Shown one piece after another: positions 1 through 60,737 of a stretch of DNA of 64,000 nucleotides. Source of the stretch: Candidatus Nomurabacteria bacterium (GTDB lineage: Bacteria > Patescibacteriota > Patescibacteriia > UBA1558 > GWA2-36-10); the NCBI GenBank assembly GCA_020632415.1, contig JACKFO010000002.1, positions 322,732 through 386,731 of the forward strand. Direction: 5' to 3'. The number at the start of each line of letters is the position of its first letter. Position 1 is the stretch's first letter. A program made the translations under genes and the position numbers. Under the pieces are notes generated by a model, which worked only from the letters and a program-made list of their open reading frames with translations, had not been told where the DNA came from and did no database searches.

Positions 1-591
1 CTTAACTAAAGATTTATGAATAGAAATATAAAGCTGAACGTTTTTTTCTCTTTCTCTCAAAGTATCACCACTGAACTTGACTCGTGGCTTGACCATCTGA
101 TACATCGTTTCAATCACGCTATCTTCAATGTCCTCTGGATTCAAAAGCATGTCGATTTCACAGGCCATCACACCAATGATCCAATCAAAATATTGTTTTC
201 TTTCTTTGCCTTGATAAAGATCATTGAGCATCACAAACAAATCACCGTAGCGACGAATGATCTGCGCCACTTCCAAAATCATTTTTTCTGGAATAGTATT
301 GTTTGGCAAATATTTGGAACGAATCAAATCCTCGATCAAACCTTTGGCAATATGCGGTTTTAAAGTTTCTAGAATCAAACGACGGCGTAAATTTCTTTCA
401 ATTGCAAAACGTCTCAATAAATGAGCCTCTTTAAAATCAACGCTATTGCGTAATTTTTCATAGACAAAAGTCACTCTTGAAGTAATATCTTCAACTTCAA
501 TCTTGTTTTCATCCTCTAAAATTGTACGACGTCTTTGGTAAATTTTGTCCAATTTCTGATACAAATCAACGATACTTGGGGAAATTTCCAT
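1..591 (-). CDS. hypothetical protein, N-terminal 197 codons only (gene runs off left edge)
   Basis: Open reverse frame from ATG (complement of 589-591; MEISPSIVDLYQKLDKIYQRRR...) to position 1 with no stop. It is missing from the ORF track only because it has no in-window stop. Track ORF 16..363(+) is its antisense shadow. Confidence 0.5.
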   Translation of the reverse strand, partial: MEISPSIVDLYQKLDKIYQRRRTILEDENKIEVEDITSRVTFVYEKLRNSVDFKEAHLLRRFAIERNLRRRLILETLKPHIAKGLIEDLIRSKYLPNNTIPEKMILEVAQIIRRYGDLFVMLNDLYQGKERKQYFDWIIGVMACEIDMLLNPEDIEDSVIETMYQMVKPRVKFSGDTLREREKNVQLYISIHKSLVK

Positions 592-23529: not shown

Positions 23530-24513
23530 TCAGGGACGCCAGTAGTAGCGCACAGCCGCGACTGCCTGCTCGAGACGACTGTCGTAGCCGACCTGGAAGC
23601 TCAAAGAGCCGATCAGCTCCCCAGAATTCTTCCAGCCAAGAAAAGCCTGCCAGGCTTCAGCTTGCTCACCGAAGTCAAATCCTGAGGTCAAGAAGAACTT
23701 CTGCTTTGCTCCCAGACGGAGAAAATCCCAGTTTCCCTTCAAGACGTAGAGATTGTCCGGAGCGATCCATCCGTCCGGATGGAAGCGATAGCTCCAGCCA
23801 CCGGCCAAAGCCAAAGACTGCCAGGGTCGAGTGTAGAGCGAGACGTTATGACCAATCTCTTCTTCCCAGCTCAAGTGAAGATCGAAAATGCTCCAGTAGC
23901 CATTGAGGTGGTAGTTGCCGACCCAAACATCACTATCCAGCATCGGAAAAGCGCTGAACAAACTATCCAGACCTCGTGCTGGCCATGTACGACGAGCGCC
24001 ATAGCCCAAAGCAGCAGAAGCGCCAAAAGGTCGACCTCCCAACTGATCATACCAAGCGACTTGCAAGGCTGCTCCTGAGATACTCCCGGTAAAAGGCAGC
24101 TCAGCGTCATTTGGTCGCAAGAGAGTTGCTTCGTAGGCCTGAGGAAAGCTTTCCAAAGCCAGGTTTCGATACTGTCCAGCGCGCAGACTGAAATTCCCAT
24201 TGGAATTTCGCCAATCGTGCTGAACAAAGGCCTCGCTCAAGAAAGCCTCAGCCTGATCACCGTAAGCAATCTGACCTTCAGCCTTGAACGAAAAAACCTT
24301 GTTTTGACCACTTGAAACCCAAGCTTGTCCTCCTAGAAGGCTGTATGACCAGCGGGCTTGCAAGCTATCTTCGAAGCTGGTATTCAAACCAGCGCCTCCA
24401 TAGAAGTCCAGCTGGAAACGTTCCACCTGATCATCACTGGAAGCAGCAGCAAAAGCTGTGGACTGGGTCCAGAGGATCAACAGACCCAACAGCCAAAAAC
24501 TCAAAGTTTTCAT
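23530..24513 (-). CDS. orphan secreted protein with outer-membrane beta-barrel-like sequence pattern (G+C-rich cassette B1)
   Basis: GGAGGA SD. Signal peptide MKTLSFWLLGLLILWTQSTAFA/AASS. Many short alternating hydrophobic/aromatic strands (FQLDFYGGAG, RWSYSLLGG, FSFKAEGQIAYG, LQVAWYDQ, SLSFQVGYD) and an aromatic C-terminus VRYYWRP. G/C-ending codons. Confidence 0.6.
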   Translation of the reverse strand: MKTLSFWLLGLLILWTQSTAFAAASSDDQVERFQLDFYGGAGLNTSFEDSLQARWSYSLLGGQAWVSSGQNKVFSFKAEGQIAYGDQAEAFLSEAFVQHDWRNSNGNFSLRAGQYRNLALESFPQAYEATLLRPNDAELPFTGSISGAALQVAWYDQLGGRPFGASAALGYGARRTWPARGLDSLFSAFPMLDSDVWVGNYHLNGYWSIFDLHLSWEEEIGHNVSLYTRPWQSLALAGGWSYRFHPDGWIAPDNLYVLKGNWDFLRLGAKQKFFLTSGFDFGEQAEAWQAFLGWKNSGELIGSLSFQVGYDSRLEQAVAAVRYYWRP

Positions 24514-24679: not shown

Positions 24680-24708
24680 TTGACAAATATTTTAAAATAG
24701 TATATAAT
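24680..24708 (+). promoter_or_regulatory. promoter of cassette B2
   Basis: TTGACA 24680-24685, 17-nt spacer, TATAAT 24703-24708. Confidence 0.65.
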
Positions 24709-24753: not shown

Positions 24754-25500
24754 ATGAACCGCATTCACAGCTTCTGCCTGCTGATGCTCCTGTGCATCAG
24801 CGCCGCCTTCGCCGACGCCTACGAAGAACCCATCAAGAACACCAACCCCGACACCACGGCCACCACGGCGTCCTGGGAAGCGAACACGCTTCCGATGGAA
24901 CCCTGGCTGATCAAGTGGGACGCCAACGGCCAGCCGGTCAAGACGCATCGTCTGAGCTTCGAAATTTCCGGCAGCGACACCCTGTACTACAAGGGTGACT
25001 GCCTGATCGAAGATCAGCGCGTCCGCTGGTATCCGAAGTCCCTGCAGGACAACCGGATGCACTCGGCCTACTGGACCGCTCGTCGCAGCATGTACGCGGC
25101 ACTGCTCGTCGCCGGCTACCAAGCGCGCGAAGCCGACTCGCTCTGCCGCACGCTACAACCCGTGATCGATGGCCAGAAGGACAGTCGTCCCCTGCTCAAC
25201 CAGATCATGGCCGCCGCCCCGAACATCCACAAGCTGAACATGCTGGAACATGAGCTCCTGGCAATGCAACAGCAGATGGTCACCGTCGACATGCTCAACG
25301 AGTTCGCCGGAGACATCGACGCCGCCCTGTCCGAACACGTCAACTTCGCCGAAACGGTGGATGACTTCCTCAATCAGACACGAGGAAAGAAGTGGGGACG
25401 CGCCAAACGTGCTCACTCCCTCTTCCTGACATCGGCGCCGCCGAGCGAGGAACGATGCCTTCCGTCAACGGAAGAGATGCCCATGCCGAGCAAGTTCTGA
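24754..25500 (+). CDS. orphan secreted protein, 248 aa (G+C-rich cassette B2)
   Basis: GGAGGA 5 nt upstream of ATG 24754. Signal peptide MNRIHSFCLLMLLCISAAFA/DAYEE. Strongly G/C-ending codons. The track start at 24565 runs through the promoter and is rejected. Confidence 0.6.
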   Translation: MNRIHSFCLLMLLCISAAFADAYEEPIKNTNPDTTATTASWEANTLPMEPWLIKWDANGQPVKTHRLSFEISGSDTLYYKGDCLIEDQRVRWYPKSLQDNRMHSAYWTARRSMYAALLVAGYQAREADSLCRTLQPVIDGQKDSRPLLNQIMAAAPNIHKLNMLEHELLAMQQQMVTVDMLNEFAGDIDAALSEHVNFAETVDDFLNQTRGKKWGRAKRAHSLFLTSAPPSEERCLPSTEEMPMPSKF

Positions 25501-25622: not shown

Positions 25623-28600
25623 TTATTTTTTATACAAATTGTCTAAATCTACTTGATTACGAACTTCAATTGTTGGATCACCCAAAGGATCTAATCTAAA
25701 TAATTTACCGGCTTCTTTAACAAAGGTATTTCCTTCAGTATCAGTAAAAGTAGCGCCATCATTCATTTGTGATAATTGATCAAAACCACGGTGTACTTCA
25801 CCAGCTATTTCTGTGCTTGTCTGAGCTGCCTCAGCAACATTCTCGCTAACTGGAACTTGTTCAGGTATCGCCTCAGCTGACACTGGCTCTACCGGCTCTT
25901 CAATTGGCGTCTCAAAACTTTCTGGTTCCATAGCCCCAGCTGTCTCCCTAGCTTTCCTAGCTTGATCCAGACTTTCACTTAAACCAGACGCTTTTGGTTC
26001 TGGAATATTATCTGCTACTGGCGGCAAATTTTCAGACGCAGCTTTTGCCGCTGTTTTTACTGGCTCTGATAAAACTGAATTATCCAACCAAGATTCTAAA
26101 ACTTTTTCTTTCAAAGTCCAAGTATTGCCACTCAAGTCGTCTAACATATATTCTTCTTGACCAAATAAATGTTTTTTTACTAAATGCACAAAAGCATAAA
26201 ATTGACGACCATTTTCATCTTTGACTAAACGCGCCTCCCAAGCTTTACCAGGCAAAGAATCGCTAGTAGCTACTTTATCAAAAGCGGAAGTGTATCTTTC
26301 TACTGTTTCCAAATCATTTAGATCAGAAATCTTTACATTTGGCGCTTGTTCTACATATTTCAAAAATATCGCTGCTTTATTACTATCTGGTGTAAAAGAA
26401 TTTGGATAATAATCCTCCAAAAATTGCCTTTGTACCTCTGGAGAACTTTCAAAAACATGATTAACTAAAGCGTCAATTTCTTGTGGATTATTTTCTACTG
26501 CTCTTAAGAGCTCTTCTGAATAAGGAGTCTTACCAGCTAAAAATCCATCCAAATTAGCGGTAGCTACTTCTGCTGAGCCTGTTGTTTCTGGAACAAAATT
26601 ATGTCCACTATGATCTACCATTTTACTCAAATCATCTACTGTAACATCATGATTGTCTGCAAGACGATAAATTGTTTGACCATTGATTTCTACCTGCTCA
26701 ACTGGCTGATGATCAAAAGACCAATTATGCACTTCTCCATCATGAGACAACCAATCCGTACCATGTGCTCTAACTTCAGCAGCGATTTGGTCAACGCTTT
26801 CCGTACTGATTCTCACTCCATGTTTTGCTGCCTCGGCAATTGCTTCATTATTGGCAACAATATTTTGCATTTGCTCAGCAGTCAAAGCGCCTGATTTTTG
26901 CGCAGCTTCACTAATGTTTTCTGGATTAAATAAATTACCAAAATTTAACTTCGTGCCAAGCTTTAGCTGATCAACATCACCGTCAATACCAAAAGCTTTT
27001 GGATCAGCGACAATTTTATCTTTAAAATAATCAATAAAATAAGTACGCTGAGCTTCATTTAGATTGTTCCAATTTGGCACTCTAGCTCTTAACTGATCTT
27101 CTGTTAGATTCCAAACATTATCTCCTTTACTAACTACGGCTTCAACACTAATTCCTCCTTGATCTGGGATATTCTCTGCCACACCATGTGGTACTGGAGC
27201 GTCTGATTCTAAAGTTGGTCTTAAATAAGCTGTTTCTGGAGCGCCAGGATCAGCAACTTCCTGAGCGTGCTCTGCTGCGCCTTGCACCTGATCTGCGCCA
27301 TCAGCGTGACTTAATTTATCCAAAACTCTTGAACCAGCTATTGCTCCAACTGTCAAACCTAAAACCGCTGAGACGCCATATCGTCTCATAGCCTTCATAC
27401 GTGATTTATCTTGTGCGCTAGATAAAGTCTCTACCGTCTTCTGTTCTGTTTTTAAAGTCTCGCTGACAATATCAATTTTAACAGAATTAATTCTTTCATT
27501 ACCATTAACTATAGGCTCTCCTATAATTTCATCGAGAGCGATTTTATCTTGGAATTCCGACTTTAATCTTCGAAAATACTCTTCTTGAATCAAGTTCACA
27601 AAAGCTGCTTGCTCATCACCAAAACGACCAGCCTCAGCTAAACCAACTCTTTTATCTAAACTCAAAATTCTTAATCGCGCTAATTCTTTAGCTAATTCCT
27701 CTGTTGGATATTGCTCTTGATTTCCTAACACCTCTCTCCATTCAACGATATCTTCGTCTGTAATTTTTCCTGCTTCTGATTTTTTGCTTTTGAATCCAAG
27801 ATTTTTCATCTTGTCAATCAAACCTTTTTGTCCGCCCCATTCACTTCTTTTATCAATTGTTGCTTCAGCAAACATAAAAGTGCCCGTAGAAGACATCACG
27901 CCACGTGCTGTCAAAATACCAGCAACAACTCCAGTTGTACCACCGCTAAACAACAAACTAGCGCCAAACAAACCAACACCTAAACCTAATCTAATTTTTC
28001 CGGTTTTACGCCAAAATTCTTTAAATTTTCCAATAAAATTTTTATCCAAACCACTGGCTTCAGCGTCAATCGCCACTTCTTCGGCTTGTAACAAAGAAAT
28101 GTATTCGCTGGCCAATATGTTTTTAAGCTGTTCTATCGTAATCTTACCCTCAGTAAAATCTTGTAATAATTCTCCTTTTTTATTTTCCAAACTATCATGA
28201 ACATGCTTGTCTTTGGCCTCTTGGTAAGCTTGAGCTATTTTTTCAAATTTGCTTTTACCTCCACGAACAACCTGGCCTCTTTTATATAAAGCTTTTACAA
28301 AGGCTGAACGCAACTCATCTAAATTACCAGGAACAACATCTTCATAAGACTCATTTTCAATCTCCTCTGAAATTCCTCCGTCAATCACCTCCTCAACGCC
28401 TTCTTCAGTGCGATGGCTTTCTTCTGAATCTTCTTCAGTGGCGCCTTCTGCTGCTTTTTCAATTTCTTGACTAAAACGAGCAATAATATCATCCAACTTA
28501 TCTTCTAATTCCTCTCTTGGCAAACTTCTGTCTAAACTACTGATTTCATCAAGAAACTTAGCTTGAATTTCTGGATGTTTTTGACCGTCTTCATAATGAT

Positions 28601-30722
28601 TAATATATTCTTCATAGTCTTCAAATAATTTAACCATTTCATCATTTACCGGCTGTTTTTCTTGATCATTATCTCGTAATAATTCTAATTTCTGATCCAA
28701 AGCCTGATTAATCTCTCCAATTCTTTGATTTAGTTCTGCGATAGTTAAATTTTGATCAAGGGCTTTTATTTCGGCAATTTTAGCCGCAACTAAACCCGCT
28801 GCTTGTTCAGCTTTATTTCCATAATCATCAGCTCTCAATTCAGCAAATGTCTGATCTAATTCTTTAGCTGCTTTAGTAATTAATTTGGTTTGTTCATTAT
28901 TAGATTCAACTTGAGTTTCTACTTGTTCGGCTCCCTCTGCCACTTGACCATCTGCAGAATCCGATGCCGCTGTAGTGGCAGCTTCTCTATTTCTGTGATC
29001 TAAAGCTTCCTGAATAGTATAAACTTTTTCATTTGTTGTATTTGTATCCATTCCACGATCATTAAAAACAAAATCTGGATATGCAGTGGCAATCTTTTGT
29101 TCTAATTCGCTTAACTCTTCTCCCTCGATAATTTTGATCATTACTCTTCTAACCGCATTAATTAGTTCAACTTGAATCACATAATCTGACATGCTTTCGA
29201 TCGGATCACCAAACTTCCAACCACCCGGATTAGTTAATTGATCATTGACAATTTTAGCAAATAATCTTTCATCATAAGCAAATCTCATGCGATCATAAAC
29301 CCCTGCGGTTGGTACCGAATCTGGAGCTTCTTCTTCCGCTGCTTCAGGAGCATCATCGATATTTGAATCTACTTCTTTAGGTTCTAATTTAGCAACTAAA
29401 TCTGGAGACAAAAGCTTCCAAATAACAAATGGCTCTTGGCCTTCAATTTTGACTTCAAATTTTACTTTTTTCCAACCCTTATATGCGTCTTTGATTTCTG
29501 CTGAAGTGATCAAAGCTGCTGGGCGTACTTCATTGCGCAAACCCAACTGTAACTCTCCAGAAAGCTCGGTTAATTCATTACCCATTAATTGATTTACAGC
29601 GTCTACTATACCATCAAGATGCTCTTTGGCATCAAACTCAACCTGACCATCACCCATGATCATCAAATCGACTACTTTTGCTGCAAAGTCTTTTGGCATT
29701 AAAAAACTTTCCATCCCAGGTAGACCCTTAACAAAAGCTGAATCTACTTTAACTAATTCGTCAGTACCAAATTCTTCCATCGCACCTTCTTTTTCTGGAT
29801 CAAAATTTTCTATGCCTTGAAATTTAAACTCTGTTGGTATATTTATAATCACCTCCATCATTGCTCCGCTGCGCTCACCCAAACCTCTTTCAAATTCTTC
29901 AAGAGAAAAATCTAGCCTCCTTAAATCCTCTGGAACTTCGACAACAGGACTAACAGGCTTTTGACCAACGATTTTTGATGCTTCTTGATCAACAGGATTA
30001 GTACCAGTAACAGCACTATCTGGACGCAAGGCTGCTAAAAACTTCGGAAATTTATCAACCACATCTTCTATTTCTGCTGCTTTCAATCTTTTTAAACCAG
30101 ACAAATTACTTGCTAGCTTATCTTGTGCTTTTTTAAGAATTTCCTCATCAACACCCGAAGCTCTAAATTTTCTAAAATCACCACGCAAAATAGGCTCTGC
30201 TGCTTTTTCAATCGCAGCAAGAAATTCACGGCCGATATTTTGCATTTTTTCTTCAACGGCAGCTGAATCATCAAAAAAATGAGGATCATTAATTTGCTTC
30301 AATAAATCCTCTCTCTTGCTTTCAGCTAATAAATTGCTGTCTTTAATAGCCCTTTCTAATCTATCAAGCTCCTCTGCTAAGCGCTCCTGATCTGCATCAA
30401 AATCAGCTTCTTTTCCAAATACAGCATGTGCTAAATTATCAACTAATTCTTTAGTGGATTTGCCCGCTTGCTCTGCTTCAAGCCGCAAGCTAGGATCTTT
30501 AACTTCTGCTTTAAACTCATCAACATTTTGATCAACTTTTTGCTCAGTTTCTTGCGCAACTTGCAAAACTTGATCTGGTCGAGCTTCTGTCTCTGCTCCT
30601 GCTGTTAAATTTTCTTGACGATCTTGAGCTAAAAGCGCATCAATTCTTTCTGGATCAATTGCGCCAGGAATATTCTCTCCATTCCTTTTTTCTCTTAAAT
30701 GCCTGGATTGTTTATCACCCAT
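25623..30722 (-). CDS. giant orphan protein, 1699 aa, acidic coiled-coil-rich with central hydrophobic segments
   Basis: Single uninterrupted frame in backbone-type A+T-rich DNA. Hydrophobic stretches LGLGVGLFGASLLFSGGTTGVVAGIL and YGVSAVLGLTVGAIAG. No family recognised with confidence. Confidence 0.8.
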   Translation of the reverse strand: MGDKQSRHLREKRNGENIPGAIDPERIDALLAQDRQENLTAGAETEARPDQVLQVAQETEQKVDQNVDEFKAEVKDPSLRLEAEQAGKSTKELVDNLAHAVFGKEADFDADQERLAEELDRLERAIKDSNLLAESKREDLLKQINDPHFFDDSAAVEEKMQNIGREFLAAIEKAAEPILRGDFRKFRASGVDEEILKKAQDKLASNLSGLKRLKAAEIEDVVDKFPKFLAALRPDSAVTGTNPVDQEASKIVGQKPVSPVVEVPEDLRRLDFSLEEFERGLGERSGAMMEVIINIPTEFKFQGIENFDPEKEGAMEEFGTDELVKVDSAFVKGLPGMESFLMPKDFAAKVVDLMIMGDGQVEFDAKEHLDGIVDAVNQLMGNELTELSGELQLGLRNEVRPAALITSAEIKDAYKGWKKVKFEVKIEGQEPFVIWKLLSPDLVAKLEPKEVDSNIDDAPEAAEEEAPDSVPTAGVYDRMRFAYDERLFAKIVNDQLTNPGGWKFGDPIESMSDYVIQVELINAVRRVMIKIIEGEELSELEQKIATAYPDFVFNDRGMDTNTTNEKVYTIQEALDHRNREAATTAASDSADGQVAEGAEQVETQVESNNEQTKLITKAAKELDQTFAELRADDYGNKAEQAAGLVAAKIAEIKALDQNLTIAELNQRIGEINQALDQKLELLRDNDQEKQPVNDEMVKLFEDYEEYINHYEDGQKHPEIQAKFLDEISSLDRSLPREELEDKLDDIIARFSQEIEKAAEGATEEDSEESHRTEEGVEEVIDGGISEEIENESYEDVVPGNLDELRSAFVKALYKRGQVVRGGKSKFEKIAQAYQEAKDKHVHDSLENKKGELLQDFTEGKITIEQLKNILASEYISLLQAEEVAIDAEASGLDKNFIGKFKEFWRKTGKIRLGLGVGLFGASLLFSGGTTGVVAGILTARGVMSSTGTFMFAEATIDKRSEWGGQKGLIDKMKNLGFKSKKSEAGKITDEDIVEWREVLGNQEQYPTEELAKELARLRILSLDKRVGLAEAGRFGDEQAAFVNLIQEEYFRRLKSEFQDKIALDEIIGEPIVNGNERINSVKIDIVSETLKTEQKTVETLSSAQDKSRMKAMRRYGVSAVLGLTVGAIAGSRVLDKLSHADGADQVQGAAEHAQEVADPGAPETAYLRPTLESDAPVPHGVAENIPDQGGISVEAVVSKGDNVWNLTEDQLRARVPNWNNLNEAQRTYFIDYFKDKIVADPKAFGIDGDVDQLKLGTKLNFGNLFNPENISEAAQKSGALTAEQMQNIVANNEAIAEAAKHGVRISTESVDQIAAEVRAHGTDWLSHDGEVHNWSFDHQPVEQVEINGQTIYRLADNHDVTVDDLSKMVDHSGHNFVPETTGSAEVATANLDGFLAGKTPYSEELLRAVENNPQEIDALVNHVFESSPEVQRQFLEDYYPNSFTPDSNKAAIFLKYVEQAPNVKISDLNDLETVERYTSAFDKVATSDSLPGKAWEARLVKDENGRQFYAFVHLVKKHLFGQEEYMLDDLSGNTWTLKEKVLESWLDNSVLSEPVKTAAKAASENLPPVADNIPEPKASGLSESLDQARKARETAGAMEPESFETPIEEPVEPVSAEAIPEQVPVSENVAEAAQTSTEIAGEVHRGFDQLSQMNDGATFTDTEGNTFVKEAGKLFRLDPLGDPTIEVRNQVDLDNLYKK

Positions 30723-30723
30723 A

Positions 30724-30891
30724 TTATAATTGTTTATGAATTTTATCTAAAACCTTGTCTATTTCTTTTTGTTCAATAGACTTAATTTCCGCGCGAACCT
30801 TTTCGTTTGCGCGGTCTTTTAATTTATCTAATTCCTGCAAAAAATCTTGATAAATTTCTCTGATTTTTTTGATTTTTTCGTTGTTGGTCAT
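30724..30891 (-). CDS. small coiled-coil protein, 55 aa, translationally coupled to the giant gene
   Basis: ATG at 30889-30891 (MTNNEKIKKIREIYQDFLQELDKLKDRANEK...). Its stop at 30724-30726 lies 1 nt before the giant-gene ATG at 30720-30722. Below the track size cut-off. Confidence 0.45.
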   Translation of the reverse strand: MTNNEKIKKIREIYQDFLQELDKLKDRANEKVRAEIKSIEQKEIDKVLDKIHKQL

Positions 30892-30901
30892 AGCTTAAAA
30901 A

Positions 30902-31201
30902 CTAGGCATTAAAAACCTTGTCTTTCATGTTTAGCATTTCTTGCTTTAAATCATCAATGATTTGTTTGTGTAAGTCAGCAAAATTCGGCACTTTGCTTTT
31001 TATAAATTCATCAATGCCCTCGCCTTTTTCTAACACTTTGTCAAATTCAAGCTTATCTTCTTCAGACATTGCACCCAATAAAGCTCTGTTAAAACGACTT
31101 TCAATGACGTCAATGATTTGCTCACGCAAAGCTTGTTTTTTTTCTTCTGCTAAATCATTTAAGCCAAACTCTGTTAAAATATCAAATTGTTCTTCTGCCA
31201 T
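30902..31201 (-). CDS. small acidic helical protein, 99 aa (resembles a small conserved CPR family)
   Basis: MAEEQFDILTEFGLNDLAEEKKQALREQIIDVIESRF... First gene of the three-gene unit ending in the giant protein. Confidence 0.65.
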   Translation of the reverse strand: MAEEQFDILTEFGLNDLAEEKKQALREQIIDVIESRFNRALLGAMSEEDKLEFDKVLEKGEGIDEFIKSKVPNFADLHKQIIDDLKQEMLNMKDKVFNA

Positions 31202-31274: not shown

Positions 31275-31320
31275 AAAATAAAAAGCCCACCACTATTCCC
31301 GAAGGATTTCGTGGTGGGCT
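31275..31320 (-). terminator. terminator of cassette C
   Basis: Minus strand AGCCCACCAC-17 nt-GTGGTGGGCT followed by TTTTTATTTT. Confidence 0.65.
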
Positions 31321-31338
31321 TGAGAAAACAAGACCGAA

Positions 31339-32688
31339 CTAGTCGACGTTCACTGTGCCAACAGCGCCACCGCCTCTGACCTTGATATTGGAGTTTTTCT
31401 TCTCAGCCAAATCTCCAATCTCTTGCAGACAACGCAGACGCTGTTCATAGGTTGCTGTTTCGGGGTTCAGGCCTAAAGCCGCCAAAGCAGCATCAATCTC
31501 TGCTGTGAAAGCCTCGCCATCTGCCTTGCGAAGACGAATCTTACGCTTGGATTCAGACTCAGCGGCGGCCTCAGCATTTTGAGCTTTTTCGATCTCTGGA
31601 TCTCTAGTGGGATCACCAAAGTCCAAAGTATCGAAAGCATGCCCAACGGCCTCCAGCAACTTGCCATTAAGTTCGGTTTGCTTCGAATGATCAAAGGTTA
31701 CGTCCAAACCCTTGACCTGATCGAAACTCATAGAGCTCATGACACTTATCACATCATTGACAATTACTGTGCCAGCTACCTCAACCGAAGTCGACTGATC
31801 CTCAGACGACATCCGCAGAAAACGAGAAGGATGCTGACAAGTAATCACGCCAACTCGAAGATCAATATTGGCAGTAGAGTTGTCTCCTAGCGGCACAAAA
31901 CCAGTCTTGTATTTGCGTTCTATGGCCTCATAACGCAACAGAGTGACGCTATAGAGAAACATCCAAACTGGAATTCCTACTCGGCCCAGATACCAAGGCA
32001 AGATTGGCGCATTTATGTCACTATCACGATGATTGCCGTGATTAGATCCATAAAAATACCAATCGCCAAATTTCTTCCTGATCGGACCTCTCGGAATCAG
32101 AAATGGCCTATTCATGAACTTCGGAACCCAGCGCTCGGTCACTTCCGGCACCATGATCGAACCAATACTCCAGAAAATTGGTAAAGCCAAGAGAAAGACT
32201 GGCTGCCAGATACCAACCATAGCGCAGGTGAAAAAGCCGACAGCAGAAATTACTCCGAACCCGTAAGGTCTGGCCGGAGGCGGAGCTGGTTTTTGACCCT
32301 TGACTACATCACGCTTATCAATGAAAAAGCTGCCGGTCCAAGCTCGGCGGAAAGCGATCACGCCGAAGCCTAGCAAAACAAGGCTGGCGATCAGCTTCCA
32401 CCAAGGGAATTCTCCGTTGAAATTAAGCCAGGAGAAAAGCTGCCAGTTCCACGGCTTCAGCAACAAAGCTGCGTACCAAAGAACAAGTCCAAGCTGCAAA
32501 GCGATCCGAGTCCTCTTATCCTTAGATGTTTTAGGCTTCTTATCCTTGTCCAGATCAACGAGCCAGCTATTCAAGCTCCAGTAGATACTGAGCGGCAAGG
32601 CAAAGAAGATCAGGAAAATAGCGATGCCGTGAACAAATTGTGGGTCTTTCCATCCCACACGGCTGATGATTTTCTCCAAGGCTTCCAT
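31339..32688 (-). CDS. orphan polytopic membrane protein with soluble C-terminal domain, 449 aa (G+C-elevated cassette C)
   Basis: AAGGAG SD 7 nt from the ATG. About 6-7 Trp/Phe-rich hydrophobic helices in the first 250 aa, a PAPPPARP linker, and a charged Ala/Glu-rich C-terminus. G+C is visibly above the flanks. Confidence 0.65.
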   Translation of the reverse strand: MEALEKIISRVGWKDPQFVHGIAIFLIFFALPLSIYWSLNSWLVDLDKDKKPKTSKDKRTRIALQLGLVLWYAALLLKPWNWQLFSWLNFNGEFPWWKLIASLVLLGFGVIAFRRAWTGSFFIDKRDVVKGQKPAPPPARPYGFGVISAVGFFTCAMVGIWQPVFLLALPIFWSIGSIMVPEVTERWVPKFMNRPFLIPRGPIRKKFGDWYFYGSNHGNHRDSDINAPILPWYLGRVGIPVWMFLYSVTLLRYEAIERKYKTGFVPLGDNSTANIDLRVGVITCQHPSRFLRMSSEDQSTSVEVAGTVIVNDVISVMSSMSFDQVKGLDVTFDHSKQTELNGKLLEAVGHAFDTLDFGDPTRDPEIEKAQNAEAAAESESKRKIRLRKADGEAFTAEIDAALAALGLNPETATYEQRLRCLQEIGDLAEKKNSNIKVRGGGAVGTVNVD

Positions 32689-32786
32689 GGTCGTTCTCCT
32701 TCATTTCGTTTTTTATTCAATCTTGTTTTCGTTGTCGATGAACAGTCGAACAATCGAGCTTGAAAGCTCAAATTATTCAATATAGA

Positions 32787-32815
32787 ATTATATCACATTT
32801 TTACATTTTTGTCAA
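32787..32815 (-). promoter_or_regulatory. promoter of cassette C
   Basis: Minus strand TTGACA (32810-32815), 17 nt, TGaTATAAT extended -10 (32787-32792). 5' UTR of about 100 nt. Confidence 0.65.
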
Positions 32816-32873: not shown

Positions 32874-33515
32874 TTATTTTCGCTCTTTTTTAAATAAGAA
32901 ATAAGAATAAATAACTGGAATCAACAATAAAACAATCAAAAGCACAAAAGCAGGGCTCATCAAACCCTCTGGCAAATAGCTGATAAAAATAAACATTGCG
33001 CCAGCAATTATAAACATGTACTTAGCTAATTCGTGAGTTTTTTGCCAAACACTATCACTGGACAAAGTCCATGGAGTTCGAATGCCGATAAACCAATTGG
33101 ATTTAAACTTCGGCATTAAAAAGCCAAAGATAATAAACATTACTCCAATCAATGAACTGACAACTGTGCCAATTGGTAAATTCCAACCTAAATTAGCTAA
33201 ACTAGTAACTACAAATAAAATTGCAAAAAATAATAAAAAAACAAATTGCATAATTTTATAAGCCGAGCCAAATTGAGCATAGTTCATTTTCTTGGGATCG
33301 AGGCGTGGTAAAAATTGAAACAAAAGATAAACAGCTAAAGTTAATAAAGGAAGAAAGATGACTTGAAAATTTTTGCTACTCCAGCCATCAACTTCGCCGG
33401 CAAAATTCCAGTGACTTGCTACCTTGGCTGGTAAAAGTGGGTAAAAATAAATCGCTAAAACAATTACCACCATGACCAAAATTGGATTTAAATAATCTAG
33501 TGTTTTTAATTTCAT
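32874..33515 (-). CDS. DUF1648/SdpI-family membrane protein
   Basis: Start moved to MKLKTLDYLNP (33513-33515) to remove the overlap with mutM. LPAKVASHWNFAGEVDGWSSK is the DUF1648 motif, followed by SdpI-like TM helices. Confidence 0.65.
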   Translation of the reverse strand: MKLKTLDYLNPILVMVVIVLAIYFYPLLPAKVASHWNFAGEVDGWSSKNFQVIFLPLLTLAVYLLFQFLPRLDPKKMNYAQFGSAYKIMQFVFLLFFAILFVVTSLANLGWNLPIGTVVSSLIGVMFIIFGFLMPKFKSNWFIGIRTPWTLSSDSVWQKTHELAKYMFIIAGAMFIFISYLPEGLMSPAFVLLIVLLLIPVIYSYFLFKKERK

Positions 33516-35029: not shown

Positions 35030-35281
35030 TTATAATAAATTTTTAAGTAACTTTTCTTTTTGAGCTTTGGTCCAAGTTTTAATTTCCGCTTCTCTTTGCA
35101 TTGCTTCAGAAATAGTCTTGAACTCTTCTGAGTAAATAATTTTTACTGGTCTTCTGGCCTTTGTATATTTAGCTCCTTCTCCTACATTGTGTTTTGCTTC
35201 TCTGTCTTTTAAATTAACAGTATACCCAGTATACAAAGAGTTATCTTTACATCTTGCTAAATAAACATGATATTTCTTCAT
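35030..35281 (-). CDS. GIY-YIG nuclease superfamily protein (UPF0213-like), 83 aa
   Basis: MKKYHVYLARCKDNSLYTGYTVNLKDREAKHN...YTKARRPVKIIYSEEF.TISEAMQREAEIK. The track N-terminal extension overlaps tRNA-Tyr and is rejected. Confidence 0.8.
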   Translation of the reverse strand: MKKYHVYLARCKDNSLYTGYTVNLKDREAKHNVGEGAKYTKARRPVKIIYSEEFKTISEAMQREAEIKTWTKAQKEKLLKNLL

Positions 35282-35298
35282 CGCTTTTCTTACTAAAA

Positions 35299-35384
35299 TG
35301 GTGGGCCGGGTAGGATTCGAACCTACGAAGGCGAAAGCCAGCAGATTTACAGTCTGCCCCGGTTGACCGCTTCGGTACCGACCC
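35299..35384 (-). tRNA. tRNA-Tyr (GUA) with long variable arm, CCA encoded
   Basis: Reverse complement GGGTCGGTACCGAAGCGGTCAACCGGGGCAGACTGTAAATCTGC + variable arm + GGTTCGAATCC...CCGGCCCACCA. Confidence 0.85.
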
Positions 35385-35460
35385 ATGAAAAAAAATAAAA
35401 ACCCGTGTTATCCCAAGTAGTTGAGAAAGGGGTGCAAGGGGAAATTCCCCTTGATAAAAA

Positions 35461-49609: not shown

Positions 49610-49733
49610 ATTTTTATATAAATTATTGACGTTTCATTATAACATATTTAAATTTTAAGGCAAATCATCTCTGATATGATACCAAAAAATTACATAATTC
49701 AACTTTTGCGGATAATAACATATTTTATATATT

Positions 49734-49775
49734 CTGTCAATATGTATTGACAGAAAAGTAAATATATGATATAAA
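49734..49775 (+). promoter_or_regulatory. promoter of cassette E with 20-bp perfect palindrome over the -35 box
   Basis: CTGTCAATA-TG-TATTGACAG at 49734-49753. TTGACA 49747-49752, 17 nt, TGaTATAAA (-10 at 49770-49775). The palindrome also creates a TTGACA on the opposite strand. Confidence 0.6.
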
Positions 49776-49893
49776 AATACATTAATTACGTTCCTTACAA
49801 AGGAGATTGTTATAGTGTCTAGATTAACTAGATCATAGTTAGTTTGCACACTGTAACAGTCTTTCAACAATCCTCAAACAGGAGAACAAAGCC

Positions 49894-49962
49894 ATGTTCA
49901 AAAAGTGGTTTCCTAATCAAAGCAACCAGAGAGAGTCGACGTCTTCAACGCGAGTTGAGTAA
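49894..49962 (+). CDS. possible upstream micro-ORF, 22 aa (MFKKWFPNQSNQRESTSSTRVE)
   Basis: AGGAG 9 nt upstream of the ATG. It ends 17 nt before the main cassette E ORF. Confidence 0.3.
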   Translation: MFKKWFPNQSNQRESTSSTRVE

Positions 49963-49979
49963 GCCTTAAGGAGGGAACA

Positions 49980-50429
49980 ATGAGTCCCAAGACCAAATTT
50001 TACTGCTGGCTGGCGGCGATGACCGTCATCACTCTGACGACTCTTTTTGTTGTCAACGCAGTGAGTGGTAATCCCACATTAGCCATATCCGCCGCATTCG
50101 GCGCGTTCGCTATCACCGTAATAGTCGCGCTCGCTGTCGCCACATCATCTGTCGTGCTCGCCGGACTCATCGCACTCCTGATCGCCAGCGGAGGCGGAGT
50201 GGTCGCGTGCGCTGTCGCACTCCTGATCACCGCCAGAGCCGGAGTGGTCGCGAACGTCGACGCATTCGCCGGACTCGCCGCCGCATCCTTAGCATTCGCC
50301 ATATCCGTCGTAATTATCTTCATCCTTTCTGCTTATAAGAGCACTCTTTCCAAGAGGCATATCCTTCTTTCAATGACGGTGGTATCCATTGTCATCGCCA
50401 CCCCGATGCTCTACCTCGCACTGCAGTAG
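49980..50429 (+). CDS. orphan Ala/Val/Ile-rich polytopic membrane protein, 149 aa (G+C-rich cassette E)
   Basis: AAGGAGGG SD. Almost entirely hydrophobic sequence with an internal duplicated segment. The antisense ORF 50000..50323 is an artefact of high G+C. Confidence 0.55.
   Translation: MSPKTKFYCWLAAMTVITLTTLFVVNAVSGNPTLAISAAFGAFAITVIVALAVATSSVVLAGLIALLIASGGGVVACAVALLITARAGVVANVDAFAGLAAASLAFAISVVIIFILSAYKSTLSKRHILLSMTVVSIVIATPMLYLALQ
50170..50252. repeat. internal tandem duplication (about 45-nt period) inside the cassette E ORF
   Basis: TCGCACTCCTGATC at 50170 and 50215; GGAGTGGTCGCG at 50196 and 50241. Gives peptide IALLIASGGGVVAC / ALLITARAGVVAN. Confidence 0.8.
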
Positions 50430-60182: not shown

Positions 60183-60211
60183 TTGACAAAATATATATTA
60201 TATGATATAAT
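60183..60211 (+). promoter_or_regulatory. promoter of cassette H
   Basis: TTGACA 60183-60188, 17 nt, TGaTATAAT (-10 at 60206-60211). Confidence 0.65.
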
Positions 60212-60260
60212 ACCAAAGAATTGGACATTTTCACAACAAAAGCAGCAGTTGGAGGAAATC

Positions 60261-60737
60261 ATGAATTGGCGAAAAATTGCACTTCTGTGCCTACTTCTTG
60301 CTTTGCCGATGTGGATGCTGATCCGTTCTATGCTGCCTTCGCAGTCAGTTATGGAACAGCTCCAGGAGATCGCCGATCGAACTCCCATTCACTTCGCTTT
60401 GTTGGTCGATGGACAGAGAATCGAGTATTTCGGCTTTGCCATCGATACCAGCACAGCAGCGGATACGAGTTTCGTCGAAAATCTCTACTTCTACGATCAA
60501 GTCGTGATCTGCAACATTCCAGGAGAGAACCAGTACCTCGAAGTACTCAAGGACACCCTGGATACGATCGACCCTCTGGGCACAGTCAAAGATCACGCTC
60601 CATTGGTCGGAGGCGACTACATCATCGAAGCCTACGATGCTTGGACGGATTCCCTCAAGTTCAGAGCGCGAATTCGCGCCGAACACATTGACGGAGAACC
60701 GTACATCTTCGATGATCAGAACCTTGTCAACAACTGA
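60261..60737 (+). CDS. orphan secreted or membrane-anchored protein, 158 aa (G+C-rich cassette H)
   Basis: GGAGGA SD 6 nt from ATG 60261. N-terminal hydrophobic segment MNWRKIALLCLLLALPMWML. G/C-ending codons. Overlapping track ORFs 60221..60691(+) and 60345..60746(-) are rejected. Confidence 0.55.
   Translation: MNWRKIALLCLLLALPMWMLIRSMLPSQSVMEQLQEIADRTPIHFALLVDGQRIEYFGFAIDTSTAADTSFVENLYFYDQVVICNIPGENQYLEVLKDTLDTIDPLGTVKDHAPLVGGDYIIEAYDAWTDSLKFRARIRAEHIDGEPYIFDDQNLVNN

Follow-up and report, generated by a model that had tools for sequence, protein, structure and literature searches.

Genes and signals at the locus

The window analyzed here is the whole 64 kb stretch of DNA within which the gene that we term X is located. 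X is an open reading frame of 449 codons plus stop, situated between an SdpI/DUF1648 membrane protein gene upstream and an operon for DUF5663, a 55-aa ORF and a giant protein downstream (Table 1). The NCBI coding sequence for the same frame (H6761_01745) spans only 31339-32376 (345 aa) and begins at the TTG of codon 105; this start is almost certainly too far downstream and the annotated product too short, and the public annotation of X is missing 104 codons and a family name.

Table 1. Coordinates of X, its expression signals, its protein sections and its neighbors within the window
Feature	Position	Strand	Basis or remark
X coding sequence	31339..32688	(-)	divergent SPFH-family membrane protein
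Sigma-70-type promoter TTGACA-N17-TATAAT, extended -10 (TGn)	32787..32815	(-)	score 12/12
Leader stem-loop	32746..32780	(-)	dG -14.5 kcal/mol, z = -2.75
Shine-Dalgarno AAGGAG	32696..32701	(-)	7 nt before ATG at 32688; read from sequence
N-module, residues 1-98	32395..32688	(-)	hydropathy, loop charges
Residues 99-180: TM3, juxtamembrane motif, Pro-rich linker, hydrophobic helical hairpin	32149..32394	(-)	alignment, pLDDT 78-93
SPFH1 + SPFH2 (predicted), residues 181-362	31603..32148	(-)	start = ERWVPKF strand after membrane anchor
Coiled-coil CC1 (364-404, Ala/Glu-rich) + CC2 (414-432)	31393..31602	(-)	DSSP on AF2 model, pLDDT 71-78
C-terminal tail 433-449, IKVRGGGAVGTVNVD, plus stop	31339..31392	(-)	family alignment; pLDDT <50 in monomer model
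Intrinsic terminator	31275..31321	(-)	hairpin 31321-31283 then U-run; dG -27.3 kcal/mol, z = -4.5
SdpI/DUF1648 membrane protein gene (context, upstream of X)	32874..33515	(-)	Pfam E = 1.3e-19 and 1.7e-16
Downstream operon (context)	25623..31201	(-)	DUF5663 + 55-aa ORF + giant protein
DUF5663	30902-31201	(-)	first in operon downstream of X
55-aa ORF	30724-30891	(-)	downstream operon
1699-aa giant protein	25623-30722	(-)	downstream operon

The promoter is as perfect as the first-pass annotation had claimed, with the TG of its extended -10 at -15/-14; the exact extended pattern has 2 matches in the 64 kb window, where shuffled sequence gives an expectation of 0.00, and both TTGACA and TGnTATAAT are kept in 8/8 orthologous X loci. 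The leader, previously put at about 100 nt, is ~92 nt long; its stem-loop begins approximately at the predicted transcription start and is followed by an A-rich unstructured stretch. A single leader hairpin with a 10-17 bp stem, differing in sequence, occupies the same position in 7/8 loci, and the L008 leader folds as three short hairpins. The z-scores per locus ranged from -0.5 to -4.3, several of them weak, as obtained from single-sequence folds. RNAalifold returned no consensus structure for the leaders because their alignment is poor and the hairpins are not alignable in sequence, and the only Rfam matches of the window were tRNAs, with none in the X leader. The AAGGAG Shine-Dalgarno stands where it had been described, and the other loci have a purine-rich Shine-Dalgarno at the equivalent position.

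The strong terminator, which was likewise noted earlier and separates X from the giant-protein operon directly downstream, consists of an 11-bp G+C-rich stem with an inner UUCG mini-hairpin and a U-run. It was missed by a simple terminator scanner because its loop is long; a hairpin plus T-run follows the X stop codon in 8/8 loci. These signals support the view of X as a self-contained transcription unit, with a consensus promoter in front and a terminator behind. Its product is probably abundant, since the extended -10 promoter matches consensus, the 5' hairpin resembles a stabilizer, and both the Shine-Dalgarno and the terminator are strong.

Assignment of X to the SPFH family

X belongs to the SPFH family. 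The first-pass annotation had recognized no family and distrusted its own SPFH hint; Foldseek, BFVD, Pfam Band_7 and the family profile agree that the hint was correct. The fold evidence is a predicted AF2 model from a shallow 14-sequence alignment, with pLDDT of 75.8 overall, 75-93 in the core and 54-70 in the N-module. When this model was compared to the PDB with Foldseek, ranks 1-42 were all SPFH proteins, with stomatin first (1.2e-8), and the 22 best BFVD matches (E <= 1.4e-3) were all SPFH/Band 7-type or unnamed.

In sequence comparisons, Pfam Band_7 matched 5/14 members of the X family with a best E of 1.6e-8, so that at least one member lies above the gathering score. Against the gathering value of 23.6 for PF01145, the bit scores were 17.0 for X of the window (E = 0.006), 23.4 for P0002, 22.8 for P0011 and 18.7 for P0012; searches of Pfam, NCBIfam, PADLOC and PHROGs with the single X protein yielded only this sub-threshold Band_7 match plus noise. 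The X family profile run against the PDB placed HflK, stomatin, QmcA, HflC and prohibitin on top, at marginal E-values of 0.002 to 1; it paired the ERWVP strand of X with the ERGVV strand of HflK just past the TM, and it also picked up a canonical Band_7 protein in L082 (Pfam 8.5e-38). It is extremely unlikely that X is instead a new kind of polytopic protein, transporter-like and with a coiled-coil tail, whose structural match is an artefact of low-depth AlphaFold modeling, as might be argued from an earlier AF2 model built from 3 sequences (pLDDT 38, uninterpretable) and from the weak Band_7 E-values of the window protein.

The defining SPFH architecture includes two helices, CC1 being long and CC2 shorter, and a C-terminal region (PMC12624060), all of them predicted in X; the CC1/CC2 section aligns with the CC1 region of HflK, stomatin and prohibitin. 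Two further hallmarks are the tandem SPFH1 and SPFH2 alpha/beta domains, which appear in the model, and a membrane anchor directly before SPFH1, which is present as the hairpin 144-180. The three further TM helices upstream of this anchor are atypical for SPFH proteins.

Architecture and predicted topology

X contains the PAPPPARP (134-141), NIDLRVGVITCQ...VEVAGTVIVNDV and C-terminal GGGAVGTVNVD sequences that were listed in the earlier annotation, and Trp makes up 3.6% of its residues compared to 0.9% in the flanking proteins. Hydropathy and loop charges support the earlier view that it is a polytopic membrane protein. The soluble tail comprises ~270 aa (residues 181-449) instead of the roughly 190 aa first proposed.

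The N-module is predicted to run from a short external N-tail through TM1 (~20-44), a Lys-rich cytoplasmic loop (45-61) and TM2 (62-77) to an aromatic external loop (78-98). Residues 99-180 are the best-conserved section of the X family and include the cytoplasmic juxtamembrane motif S-F-F-x-D124-x-R126, conserved across the family, and the hydrophobic hairpin, in which W161 is invariant and a Pro is usual at the turn. D124, W161 and G349 are invariant in the family alignment; R126, G176, P240 and W242 are nearly so. The hydrophobic stretch 228-251 is modeled as SPFH1 beta-strands and not as a TM helix. The C-tail is of a strand, Gly-rich turn, strand type that is kept family-wide, and by analogy with the structures in PMC12624060 it may take part in an oligomer cap.

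Loops 1 and 3 each have a net positive charge in 15/16 alleles (loop 3 is neutral in the other one); loop 2 and the N-tail are either neutral or acidic. Net positive charge flanks the hairpin on both sides in nearly all alleles, and its turn is short (2-9 residues) and mostly uncharged. The predicted topology is N-out, C-in, an orientation taken from the positive-inside rule only, with three TM helices and a stomatin-like hairpin followed by cytoplasmic SPFH1-SPFH2-CC1-CC2-tail.

Small-genome symbionts typically carry their hypervariable genes on the surface, and the neighboring giant protein, like the GC-rich Y and Z proteins, belongs to the envelope or is secreted. The domes of HflK/C and prohibitin face the periplasm or intermembrane space (PMC12624060). 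These points would suit an extracytoplasmic HflK/C-like orientation in which 144-180 crosses the membrane once, the SPFH dome is outward, and the allelic diversity described below stems from direct contact of X with phages or with the episymbiont's host cell. We consider this rather unlikely: in the model, the 37-residue segment forms two helices with a break at W161-Q-P, and this, together with the positive flanks and short turn, favors a hairpin or two passes, with the SPFH domains on the side of the Arg/Lys-rich loop 3.

Relatives and the conserved slot

A word-indexed homology search gave only 2-4 relatives of X; the family was revealed by an exhaustive HMMER search of 1.84 billion proteins, which found only 15 cluster representatives. 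Since no stretch of the X family is conserved enough for a locus search, X loci were collected by using SdpI as a conserved anchor. All placeable relatives occupy the same slot, MutM-SdpI-X-DUF5663-55aa-giant gene; those placed between SdpI and DUF5663 are P0002, P0012, P0017, P0020, P0005, P0008 and P0004, plus the L008, L023 and L024 copies. X, DUF5663 and the 55-aa ORF occur together in every sufficiently long locus and in 0 of ~90 other SdpI loci.

X is thus a fixed part of a conserved locus in a narrow Nomurabacteria/Parcubacteria clade, and it was found in the slot in every relative examined. Its linkage to the giant-protein operon may represent a functional tie, or it could be plain clade-level synteny. 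Literature searches on SPFH in Patescibacteria and on DUF5663 returned nothing relevant. In another lineage, a canonical Band_7 gene adjoins SdpI.

Allele diversity and exchange of modules

Between loci, the identity of the flanking proteins ranges over 44-100% (59-100% for TIM, FBA and TPR; 44-98% for MutM and SdpI), whereas that of X is only 20-31%. The DNA of L002 and L005 is 97-100% identical up to X codon 92, unalignable from there to the terminator loop, and then 100% identical; each of these two X alleles was found in independent assemblies. In the comparison of the window with L001, the segment for residues 1-98 is unalignable (33-52% DNA identity, pN 0.50) and the remainder is 65-95% identical. 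The two modules also differ in identity within other pairs: 86% for the N-module and 16% for the C-module in P0012/P0017, 64% and 17% in P0007/P0014, and the converse, 32% and 78%, in window/P0002. The N- and C-modules of X recombine independently.

Within one allele lineage X is under purifying selection, as the C-module of the window compared to L001 has a dN/dS of 0.105 at a dS of 1.23, and the flanking genes have dN/dS of 0.07-0.14. The diversity between alleles may be due to balancing or diversifying selection.

Two known sources of variation were rejected. All alleles were used as tBLASTn queries and no silent or partial copies of X were detected elsewhere in the 64 kb window, which excludes a pilS-like archive within it. 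A diversity-generating retroelement (DGR) or integron was discarded, as the divergence is gene-wide with borders at the promoter and terminator, and the surroundings of the locus showed no reverse transcriptase, integrase or attC-like feature. The locus resembles mosaic loci (flagellin central domains, pilin, O-antigen/capsule, polymorphic toxin C-terminal swapping) in that conserved flanks serve as recombination anchors and deeply diverged alleles are swapped among near-identical genomes, with sharp breakpoints and independent modules. It differs from them in that the product is a predicted cytoplasmic scaffold, not a surface antigen or toxin; the variants are all homologous SPFH modules, with no silent cassettes or immunity genes found in the window; and the ORF is GC-enriched. 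Foreign or flexible islands of bacteria are typically AT-enriched.

GC enrichment of the X reading frame

The elevated G+C of the reading frame, estimated at about half in the first-pass annotation, was borne out: X has a GC of 0.485 (48.5%) and a GC3 of 0.516, compared to 0.345 (34.5%; sd 0.031) and 0.265 (sd 0.040) for 47 backbone ORFs (z = 4.5 and 6.2, respectively). In the 100-nt stretches that border the ORF, GC is 0.34 and 0.35. Codon usage is shifted (AAG 71% vs. 16%; CTG 27% vs. 3%), as is amino-acid composition, toward Gly, Ala, Arg and Pro. X lies 10-17 GC points above its flanking genes in 8/8 loci, including L008, where the backbone is 46% GC and X 56%, and both modules are GC-rich in 9/9 alleles. 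The window and L001 show no imbalance in their synonymous W/S differences (48 vs. 50), although ~39% of synonymous third positions are changed. The GC enrichment of X is stationary, confined to the ORF and common to every allele, and therefore is not the fading signature of an import.

The first-pass annotation had called X a cassette and an orphan, which would make it a foreign gene inserted at this place. Its observation of a distinct composition stands, and the homologues in relatives are not backbone-like either; the reading as an insertion does not hold, as X is in the same syntenic slot and GC-elevated in every relative examined. A recent horizontal import beside the giant-protein operon, with a high GC not yet ameliorated from that of a GC-richer donor, would account for the outlying codon usage (GC3 z = 6.2), for X having its own promoter and terminator and for the lack of an assigned Pfam or NCBIfam family. 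We judge it very unlikely, since the slot is identical in every relative, with flanking proteins that are 44-86% identical between lineages; promoter and terminator are of native type, rich in AT and kept in 8/8 loci; GC3 is stationary despite a dS of ~1.2; the GC offset persists in a backbone of 46% GC; and neither an integrase, repeat or attC-like border nor a viral-contig match was found. X likewise does not behave as a mobile gene cassette or genomic island: there is no presence/absence polymorphism among the relatives examined, the borders are native and there is no compositional decay.

Repeated import is a more serious alternative, in which a resident allele is replaced, via the promoter and terminator flanks, from an unsampled GC-richer pool (phages, plasmids or GC-richer Parcubacteria) and the ORF-limited GC mirrors that pool. 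The edges of allelic replacement are sharp at the ORF borders, allele relationships are incongruent with the flanks, X is 56% GC in the GC-richer L008 genome, and the GC of X is 47-50% in 6/8 tabulated loci (L023 also 50%) whatever the flank GC of 29-39%. However, the placeable members among the 15 representatives (from 1.84 billion proteins) are all in AT-rich genomes of the clade; viral-contig scans with X and P0020 as queries gave no match, the sensitivity of such scans being limited; the window/L001 allele lineage gathered its dS of ~1.2 in situ without loss of GC3; and the GC of X in L103 (42%) and L008 (56%) tracks the backbone. On balance such a pool is an improbable source of the enrichment.

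Two causes of the enrichment were rejected as sole explanations. High expression alone does not explain it, as AT-rich ORFs also stand behind near-consensus promoters (2658-2686 and 49712-49740); nor does hypervariability alone, as the giant protein and DUF5663 are equally divergent yet AT-rich. The other GC-rich ORFs of the window are not paralogues of X.

Interpretation

SPFH proteins are universal membrane organizers whose bacterial roles are mostly unclear, and to our knowledge no SPFH protein of the Candidate Phyla Radiation has been characterized. The explanation that we favor, and hold to be likely, is that X is a scaffold of the SPFH type (stomatin/prohibitin/flotillin/HflK-C), lineage-specific and highly divergent, with alleles swapped in a fixed slot and a stationary GC. 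By analogy with all SPFH proteins solved so far, X would most likely assemble as a homo-oligomeric ring or dome enclosing a membrane patch. SPFH subunit number regresses on CC1 length (PMC12624060), and from that regression the CC1 of ~41 aa would extrapolate to roughly 16-18 subunits. The extra polytopic N-module may form a membrane-embedded wall or draw clients to it. Many ancient allele lineages (20-31% identity) would pass between genomes via homologous recombination; the exchanges would take place within the TM2-TM3 loop as well as the conserved flanks, which would let the N- and C-modules assort independently.

A more speculative extension, which we regard as unlikely, would make X the diversifying, specificity-determining scaffold of a clade-specific envelope module, together with DUF5663, the 55-aa protein, the giant protein and the secreted GC-rich Y/Z. 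Alleles of the cytoplasmic SPFH cage would be kept by balancing or negative frequency-dependent selection arising from phage/host conflict and reshuffled as two modules, and a gene-restricted force would hold the ORFs ~12 GC points above the genome. Such a force might be selection, acting on translational accuracy or on the stability of the mRNA for a cage-forming protein, or it might be GC-biased conversion coupled to recombination. If true, X would be the first SPFH scaffold to serve as a hypervariable determinant, and it would offer a clean natural system on local GC upkeep in reduced genomes.

A role in conflict proper was also considered, in which X would be the membrane part of a system directed against phages or competitors, perhaps acting with SdpI or the giant-protein operon, and an arms race would have produced its diversity. 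SdpI of B. subtilis is a toxin-immunity protein. An SdpI-family protein adjoins X, the Band_7 gene of the other lineage is also next to SdpI, and a role of this kind would be in keeping with the extreme diversity of alleles, the purifying selection within lineages, the swapping of modules and the atypical composition. We find it distinctly unlikely: PADLOC (PADLOC-DB 2.0) and PHROGs gave no match beyond noise for X or its neighbors (PADLOC-DB 2.0 had none for X, and its sole match was a noise-level BrxF in the giant protein, E = 0.012); X has no recognizable effector domain (nuclease, protease or pore); a literature search on SPFH in anti-phage defence found no SPFH-based system; and X is universal in the clade, unlike patchy defence islands.

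Whatever the role of X, the locus shows that a strongly GC-enriched ORF in an AT-rich genome need not be a recent import. The conserved, stationary and ORF-confined GC of X thus calls for caution with composition-based calls of horizontal transfer, and the locus is a tractable case in which to separate selection from biased gene conversion. What is new with the X family is the fused polytopic N-terminal module and a conservation centered on the juxtamembrane region, together with an evolution that is unusual for a scaffold, in which 20-30%-identical alleles are traded in a fixed slot among near-identical genomes.

Comparison with other SPFH proteins

Compared to stomatin and the prokaryotic stomatins (P. 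horikoshii PH1511; the human stomatin 16-mer), X adds three TM helices, the FFxDxR motif and a Pro-rich cytoplasmic loop before the hairpin. Identity to stomatins is 11-16%, under the Pfam threshold, and the conservation peak of X is membrane-proximal instead of in SPFH2/CC1. The adjacent nfeD of the stomatin/NfeD or QmcA/YbbJ operon type is lacking: no NfeD-like fold or family was found at X loci, where the neighbors are SdpI/DUF1648 upstream and DUF5663 downstream in all. In QmcA-YbbJ (SPFH-NfeD), NfeD is a separate protein, whereas the polytopic part of X is fused N-terminally and X has neither an OB-fold domain nor a structural match to NfeD. X also lacks the long flotillin-type CC1 of FloA/FloT.

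HflK/HflC of E. coli, an FtsH-regulating 24-mer cage, is a hetero-oligomer encoded by two genes; each of the two proteins has one TM, and the dome is periplasmic. In contrast, one gene encodes X, which has four or five membrane segments and a predicted cytoplasmic location; no FtsH partner adjoins it, and the window holds no second member of the X family, unlike the HflK/HflC gene pairing. HflK is nonetheless the best sequence-profile match of X in the PDB (E = 0.0018), with an alignment that starts at the post-TM ER(G/W)VV strand and extends across SPFH2 and CC1, and an Ala/Glu-rich CC1 is common to X and HflK/HflC.

Expression signals and annotation of X

X, the SPFH-type membrane protein gene under study, carries every expression signal that the first-pass annotation had named: promoter, leader of about 92 nt, Shine-Dalgarno sequence and terminator. 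The promoter was the sole perfect site within the 10 kb scanned, and its full 29-nt pattern had two occurrences in the 64 kb window, where shuffled sequence gave an expectation of 0.00. Promoter hexamers and the terminator 3' of the stop codon were kept in 8 of 8 loci. The public NCBI annotation of this Candidatus Nomurabacteria genome (H6761_01745; 345 aa, 31339-32376, minus strand) places the start at codon 105, an internal TTG, and thereby omits TM1-TM3. The longer ORF, with its predicted start at the ATG at 32688, is supported by the Shine-Dalgarno sequence, coding-type GC3 in codons 1-100, the conserved promoter position and full-length homologues. The leader hairpin begins about at the predicted transcription start. 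Hairpins lie at equivalent positions in seven related loci (L001, L002, L008, L023, L103, L105 and L107), unrelated in sequence between lineages and with individual z-scores of -0.5 to -4.3; the structure is possibly a 5' mRNA stabiliser.

Coordinates of features in the window, in related loci and in the AlphaFold2 (AF2) model of X
Feature	Position	Strand	Remarks
X coding sequence	31339-32688	-	449 aa
X promoter	32815-32787	-	TTGACA-N17-TATAAT, TG extended -10; score 12/12
X leader hairpin	32746-32780	-	
X Shine-Dalgarno	32701-32696	-	AAGGAG, 7 nt 5' of ATG
X terminator hairpin, then U-run	31321-31283	-	dG -27.3 kcal/mol, z = -4.5
TM1, TM2, TM3 of X	residues 16-48, 55-88, 96-118		AF2 helices
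Loop of X	after TM3		S-F-F-x-D-x-R and PAPPPARP
Hairpin of X	residues 143-161, 163-176		AF2 helices; break at W161-Q-P
SPFH1/2 of X	residues 185-362		strands and helices
Distal helices of X	residues 364-404, then 414-432		first of 41 residues
Tail of X	past residue 432		low confidence
DUF5663	30902-31201	-	
DUF5663, L002	9575-9892		
DUF5663, L005	7084-7401		
55-aa ORF	30724-30891	-	MTNNEKIKKIREIYQDF...; between DUF5663 and giant gene
Giant protein	25623-30722	-	1699 aa
Y	23530-24513	-	divergent from Z; 3' of giant gene
Z	24754-25500	+	
Y promoter	24680-24708		perfect TTGACA-N17-TATAAT
Y/Z pair, L005	12612-14830		
Y/Z pair, L107	8625-10735		
Small GC-rich envelope ORFs	49747-50429, 60183-60737	+	consensus extended -10 promoters
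GIY-YIG ORF	35030-35386	-	118 aa; 5' end overlaps tRNA gene
tRNA gene	35302-35384	-	
Tandem duplication, L105	9726-15564		DUF5663, 55-aa ORF, N-terminal part of giant gene
Stomatin-like Band_7	L075 927-1907, L082 2647-3603, L089 1-186, L090 6987-7958		canonical

X is a divergent SPFH protein

The single sequence of X matched Band_7 with 17 bits, under the 23.6 cut-off, and a word-indexed search returned two relatives. When 1.84 billion representatives were scanned exhaustively with HMMER, just 15 relatives emerged, mostly full-length (460-520 aa), which aligned end to end in a single common architecture with D124, W161 and G349 invariant and R126, G176, P240 and W242 near-invariant. Once the family alignment was supplied, the pLDDT of the AlphaFold2 model rose from 38 to 75.8 (core 75-93). 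Foldseek ranks 1-42 against the PDB were all stomatin, prohibitin, HflK/C, erlin, QmcA and flotillin (best E = 1.2e-8), followed by the SPFH-like shoulder of the vault protein; the 22 best BFVD matches (E <= 1.4e-3) were viral proteins, all either Band-7-type or unnamed. Pfam Band_7 was matched by 5 of 14 family members (best E = 1.6e-8), and the best PDB matches of the family profile were HflK, stomatin, QmcA, HflC and prohibitin, the ERWVP strand of the family aligning with the HflK ERGVV strand directly past the membrane anchor. In an unrelated locus, the profile also picked up a Band_7 protein of canonical type. Because fold searches and sequence profiles agree, we assign X to SPFH as a clade-restricted family variant with a fused polytopic N-module (residues 1-98); the faint SPFH resemblance that the first-pass annotation had mentioned and distrusted was correct. 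The protein itself is thereby less mysterious; what is surprising, and directly testable, is its allele swapping and its stationary, ORF-limited GC enrichment.

The published SPFH architecture runs anchor, SPFH1, SPFH2, CC1, CC2, CT (PMC12624060), and the elements of X follow the same order. Residues 228-251, which by eye look like a TM helix, are part of SPFH1. Loops 1 and 3 each had a net positive charge in 15 of 16 alleles, and the N-tail and loop 2 were neutral or acidic; the hairpin turn (2-9 residues, mostly uncharged) had positive flanks on either side. By the positive-inside rule, these loop charges predict an N-out, C-in topology with a cytoplasmic SPFH unit, as in stomatin.

Like all solved SPFH proteins (PMC12624060), X probably assembles on the membrane as a homo-oligomeric ring or dome. 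Subunit number in SPFH proteins regresses on CC1 length (PMC12624060), and the 41-residue CC1 of X would by extrapolation give about 17 subunits. Each subunit would then contribute its hairpin and its three additional TM helices to a dense membrane-embedded wall. The juxtamembrane D-x-R (D124, R126) and the Pro-rich loop may be points of contact with clients or lipids. X fits an abundant structural protein, given its consensus promoter, 5' hairpin, A-rich leader, strong Shine-Dalgarno sequence and strong terminator.

X occupies a fixed slot

In each relative with a readable contig, X occupied the same slot, in the order ScpAB, PsiU synthase, S11 peptidase, TIM, FBA, TPR, GIY-YIG, MutM, SdpI, [X], DUF5663, 55-aa ORF, giant protein. 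The check covered the loci of family members P0002 (L001), P0012 (L002-4) and P0017 (L005-7), the Parcubacteria genome L008, L023 and L024, and P0020, P0005, P0008 and P0004; X, DUF5663 and the 55-aa ORF were found together in every one of these that was long enough, and none of the three occurred in about 90 SdpI loci of other lineages. The earlier reading of X as a cassette fails here: its observations were confirmed and its interpretation held in part, but a foreign cassette is largely refuted by the fixed slot and by the stationary GC3 described below. Invariant linkage suggests a possible functional tie between X and either SdpI or the DUF5663/55-aa/giant operon.

A second lineage has a canonical Band_7 gene (Pfam E = 8.5e-38) directly upstream of an SdpI homologue, so SPFH-SdpI adjacency recurs outside the Patescibacteria clade, which adds weak support for such a tie. 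The four canonical loci are probably related to one another.

GC enrichment is confined to the ORF and stationary

The elevated G+C first noticed by eye was borne out: X has GC 0.485 and GC3 0.516, against 0.345 (sd 0.031) and 0.265 (sd 0.040) for 47 backbone ORFs (z = 4.5 and 6.2). Codon choice differed strongly from the backbone (AAG 71% vs 16%, CTG 27% vs 3%, TTC 54% vs 9%, TTA 5% vs 42%). Protein composition was shifted as well, with a Gly+Ala+Arg+Pro fraction of 0.23-0.28 vs 0.16-0.21 and Arg up relative to Lys. The 100 nt on either side of the ORF were backbone-like (0.34 and 0.35). X exceeded its flanking genes by 10-17 points in 8 of 8 loci (L103, 0.42 vs about 0.31; the GC-richer L008, 0.56 vs 0.41-0.45), and the enrichment extended to both modules in all nine alleles.

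The window and L001 differed at about 39% of the synonymous third positions in identical codons, and the synonymous W/S changes were balanced (48 vs 50). The GC3 of X is therefore stationary, not decaying, which counts against the fading signature of a donor and favours a persistent force limited to the ORF. Promoter strength by itself does not account for the enrichment, as strong promoters here also drive AT-rich genes, and neither does divergence by itself, the giant and DUF5663 genes being equally divergent and AT-rich. GC-biased conversion would have to end within 130-180 nt of either end of the ORF. The window has at least four further ORFs, for envelope or secreted proteins, that pair high GC with a consensus promoter. 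Y and Z, beyond the giant gene, are two of these and are syntenic and GC-rich in relatives too; the combination thus marks a class of genes in this clade rather than X alone.

Probably old alleles, exchanged by module

Across eight loci, pairwise identity was 59-100% for TIM, FBA and TPR, 44-98% for MutM and SdpI, and 20-31% for X, two closest pairs excepted. In the clearest case, L002 and L005 have flanking genes 97-100% identical, and their DNA is 97-100% identical up to X codon 92, then unalignable for about 1.17 kb, with 100% identity resuming at the terminator right arm and continuing past it. Both alleles appeared in more than one independent assembly, so the break is not a chimera. The window and L001 showed the opposite pattern: the first ~100 codons were unalignable (33-52% DNA identity, pN 0.50) and the remainder 65-95% identical. 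N- and C-module identities of 86% and 16% (P0012/P0017), 64% and 17% (P0007/P0014) and 32% and 78% (window/P0002) confirm that the modules assort independently, and all three junctions fall within or close to the external TM2-TM3 loop.

Within one allele lineage evolution is ordinary: the C-module of the window and L001 had dN/dS 0.105 (dS 1.23), and MutM, SdpI and DUF5663 had 0.07-0.14. This rejects continuous hypermutation, and together with the mosaicism it means that the diversity of X is best read as old allele lineages swapped by homologous recombination. The window held no silent copies. Balancing or diversifying selection from phage/host conflict is a plausible reason for this diversity, but PADLOC-DB 2.0 gave no defence signature for X or its neighbours. 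The evolutionary regime of X, mosaic and GC-enriched, is unusual.

Neighbouring genes

DUF5663, AT-rich unlike X, also has deep allele classes, the window type and the L002/L005 type being about 20% identical where MutM of those genomes is 61-88%. The 55-aa ORF abuts the giant gene start codon and was present in all related loci (27-100% identity). The giant protein has two internal hydrophobic segments and, at residues 317-389, a weak match to NCBIfam models of FliY/FliM-type flagellar switch proteins (E = 2.9e-7, far under cut-off); it was only about 32% identical to its L005 orthologue across 385 aa. The duplication in L105 gives a 326-aa giant gene copy followed by one of 1289 aa, and this locus has MutM as a 75-aa fragment and an extra GIY-YIG gene.

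Signal peptides are present in Y (GC 0.61, GC3 0.81) and in Z (GC 0.52), and neither protein matched a Pfam family; the pair was 31-52% identical in L005 and L107, and the aromatic-rich C-terminus of Z is reminiscent of beta-barrel proteins. The first small envelope ORF encodes a 149-aa polytopic protein (GC3 0.65, promoter with 1 mismatch) and the second a protein of 158 aa with a signal or TM segment at its N-terminus (GC3 0.60, perfect promoter). In this genome, envelope genes that are both GC-rich and strongly promoted seem to form a class. The real start of the GIY-YIG ORF is probably downstream of the tRNA gene, since its orthologues are 80-83 aa.
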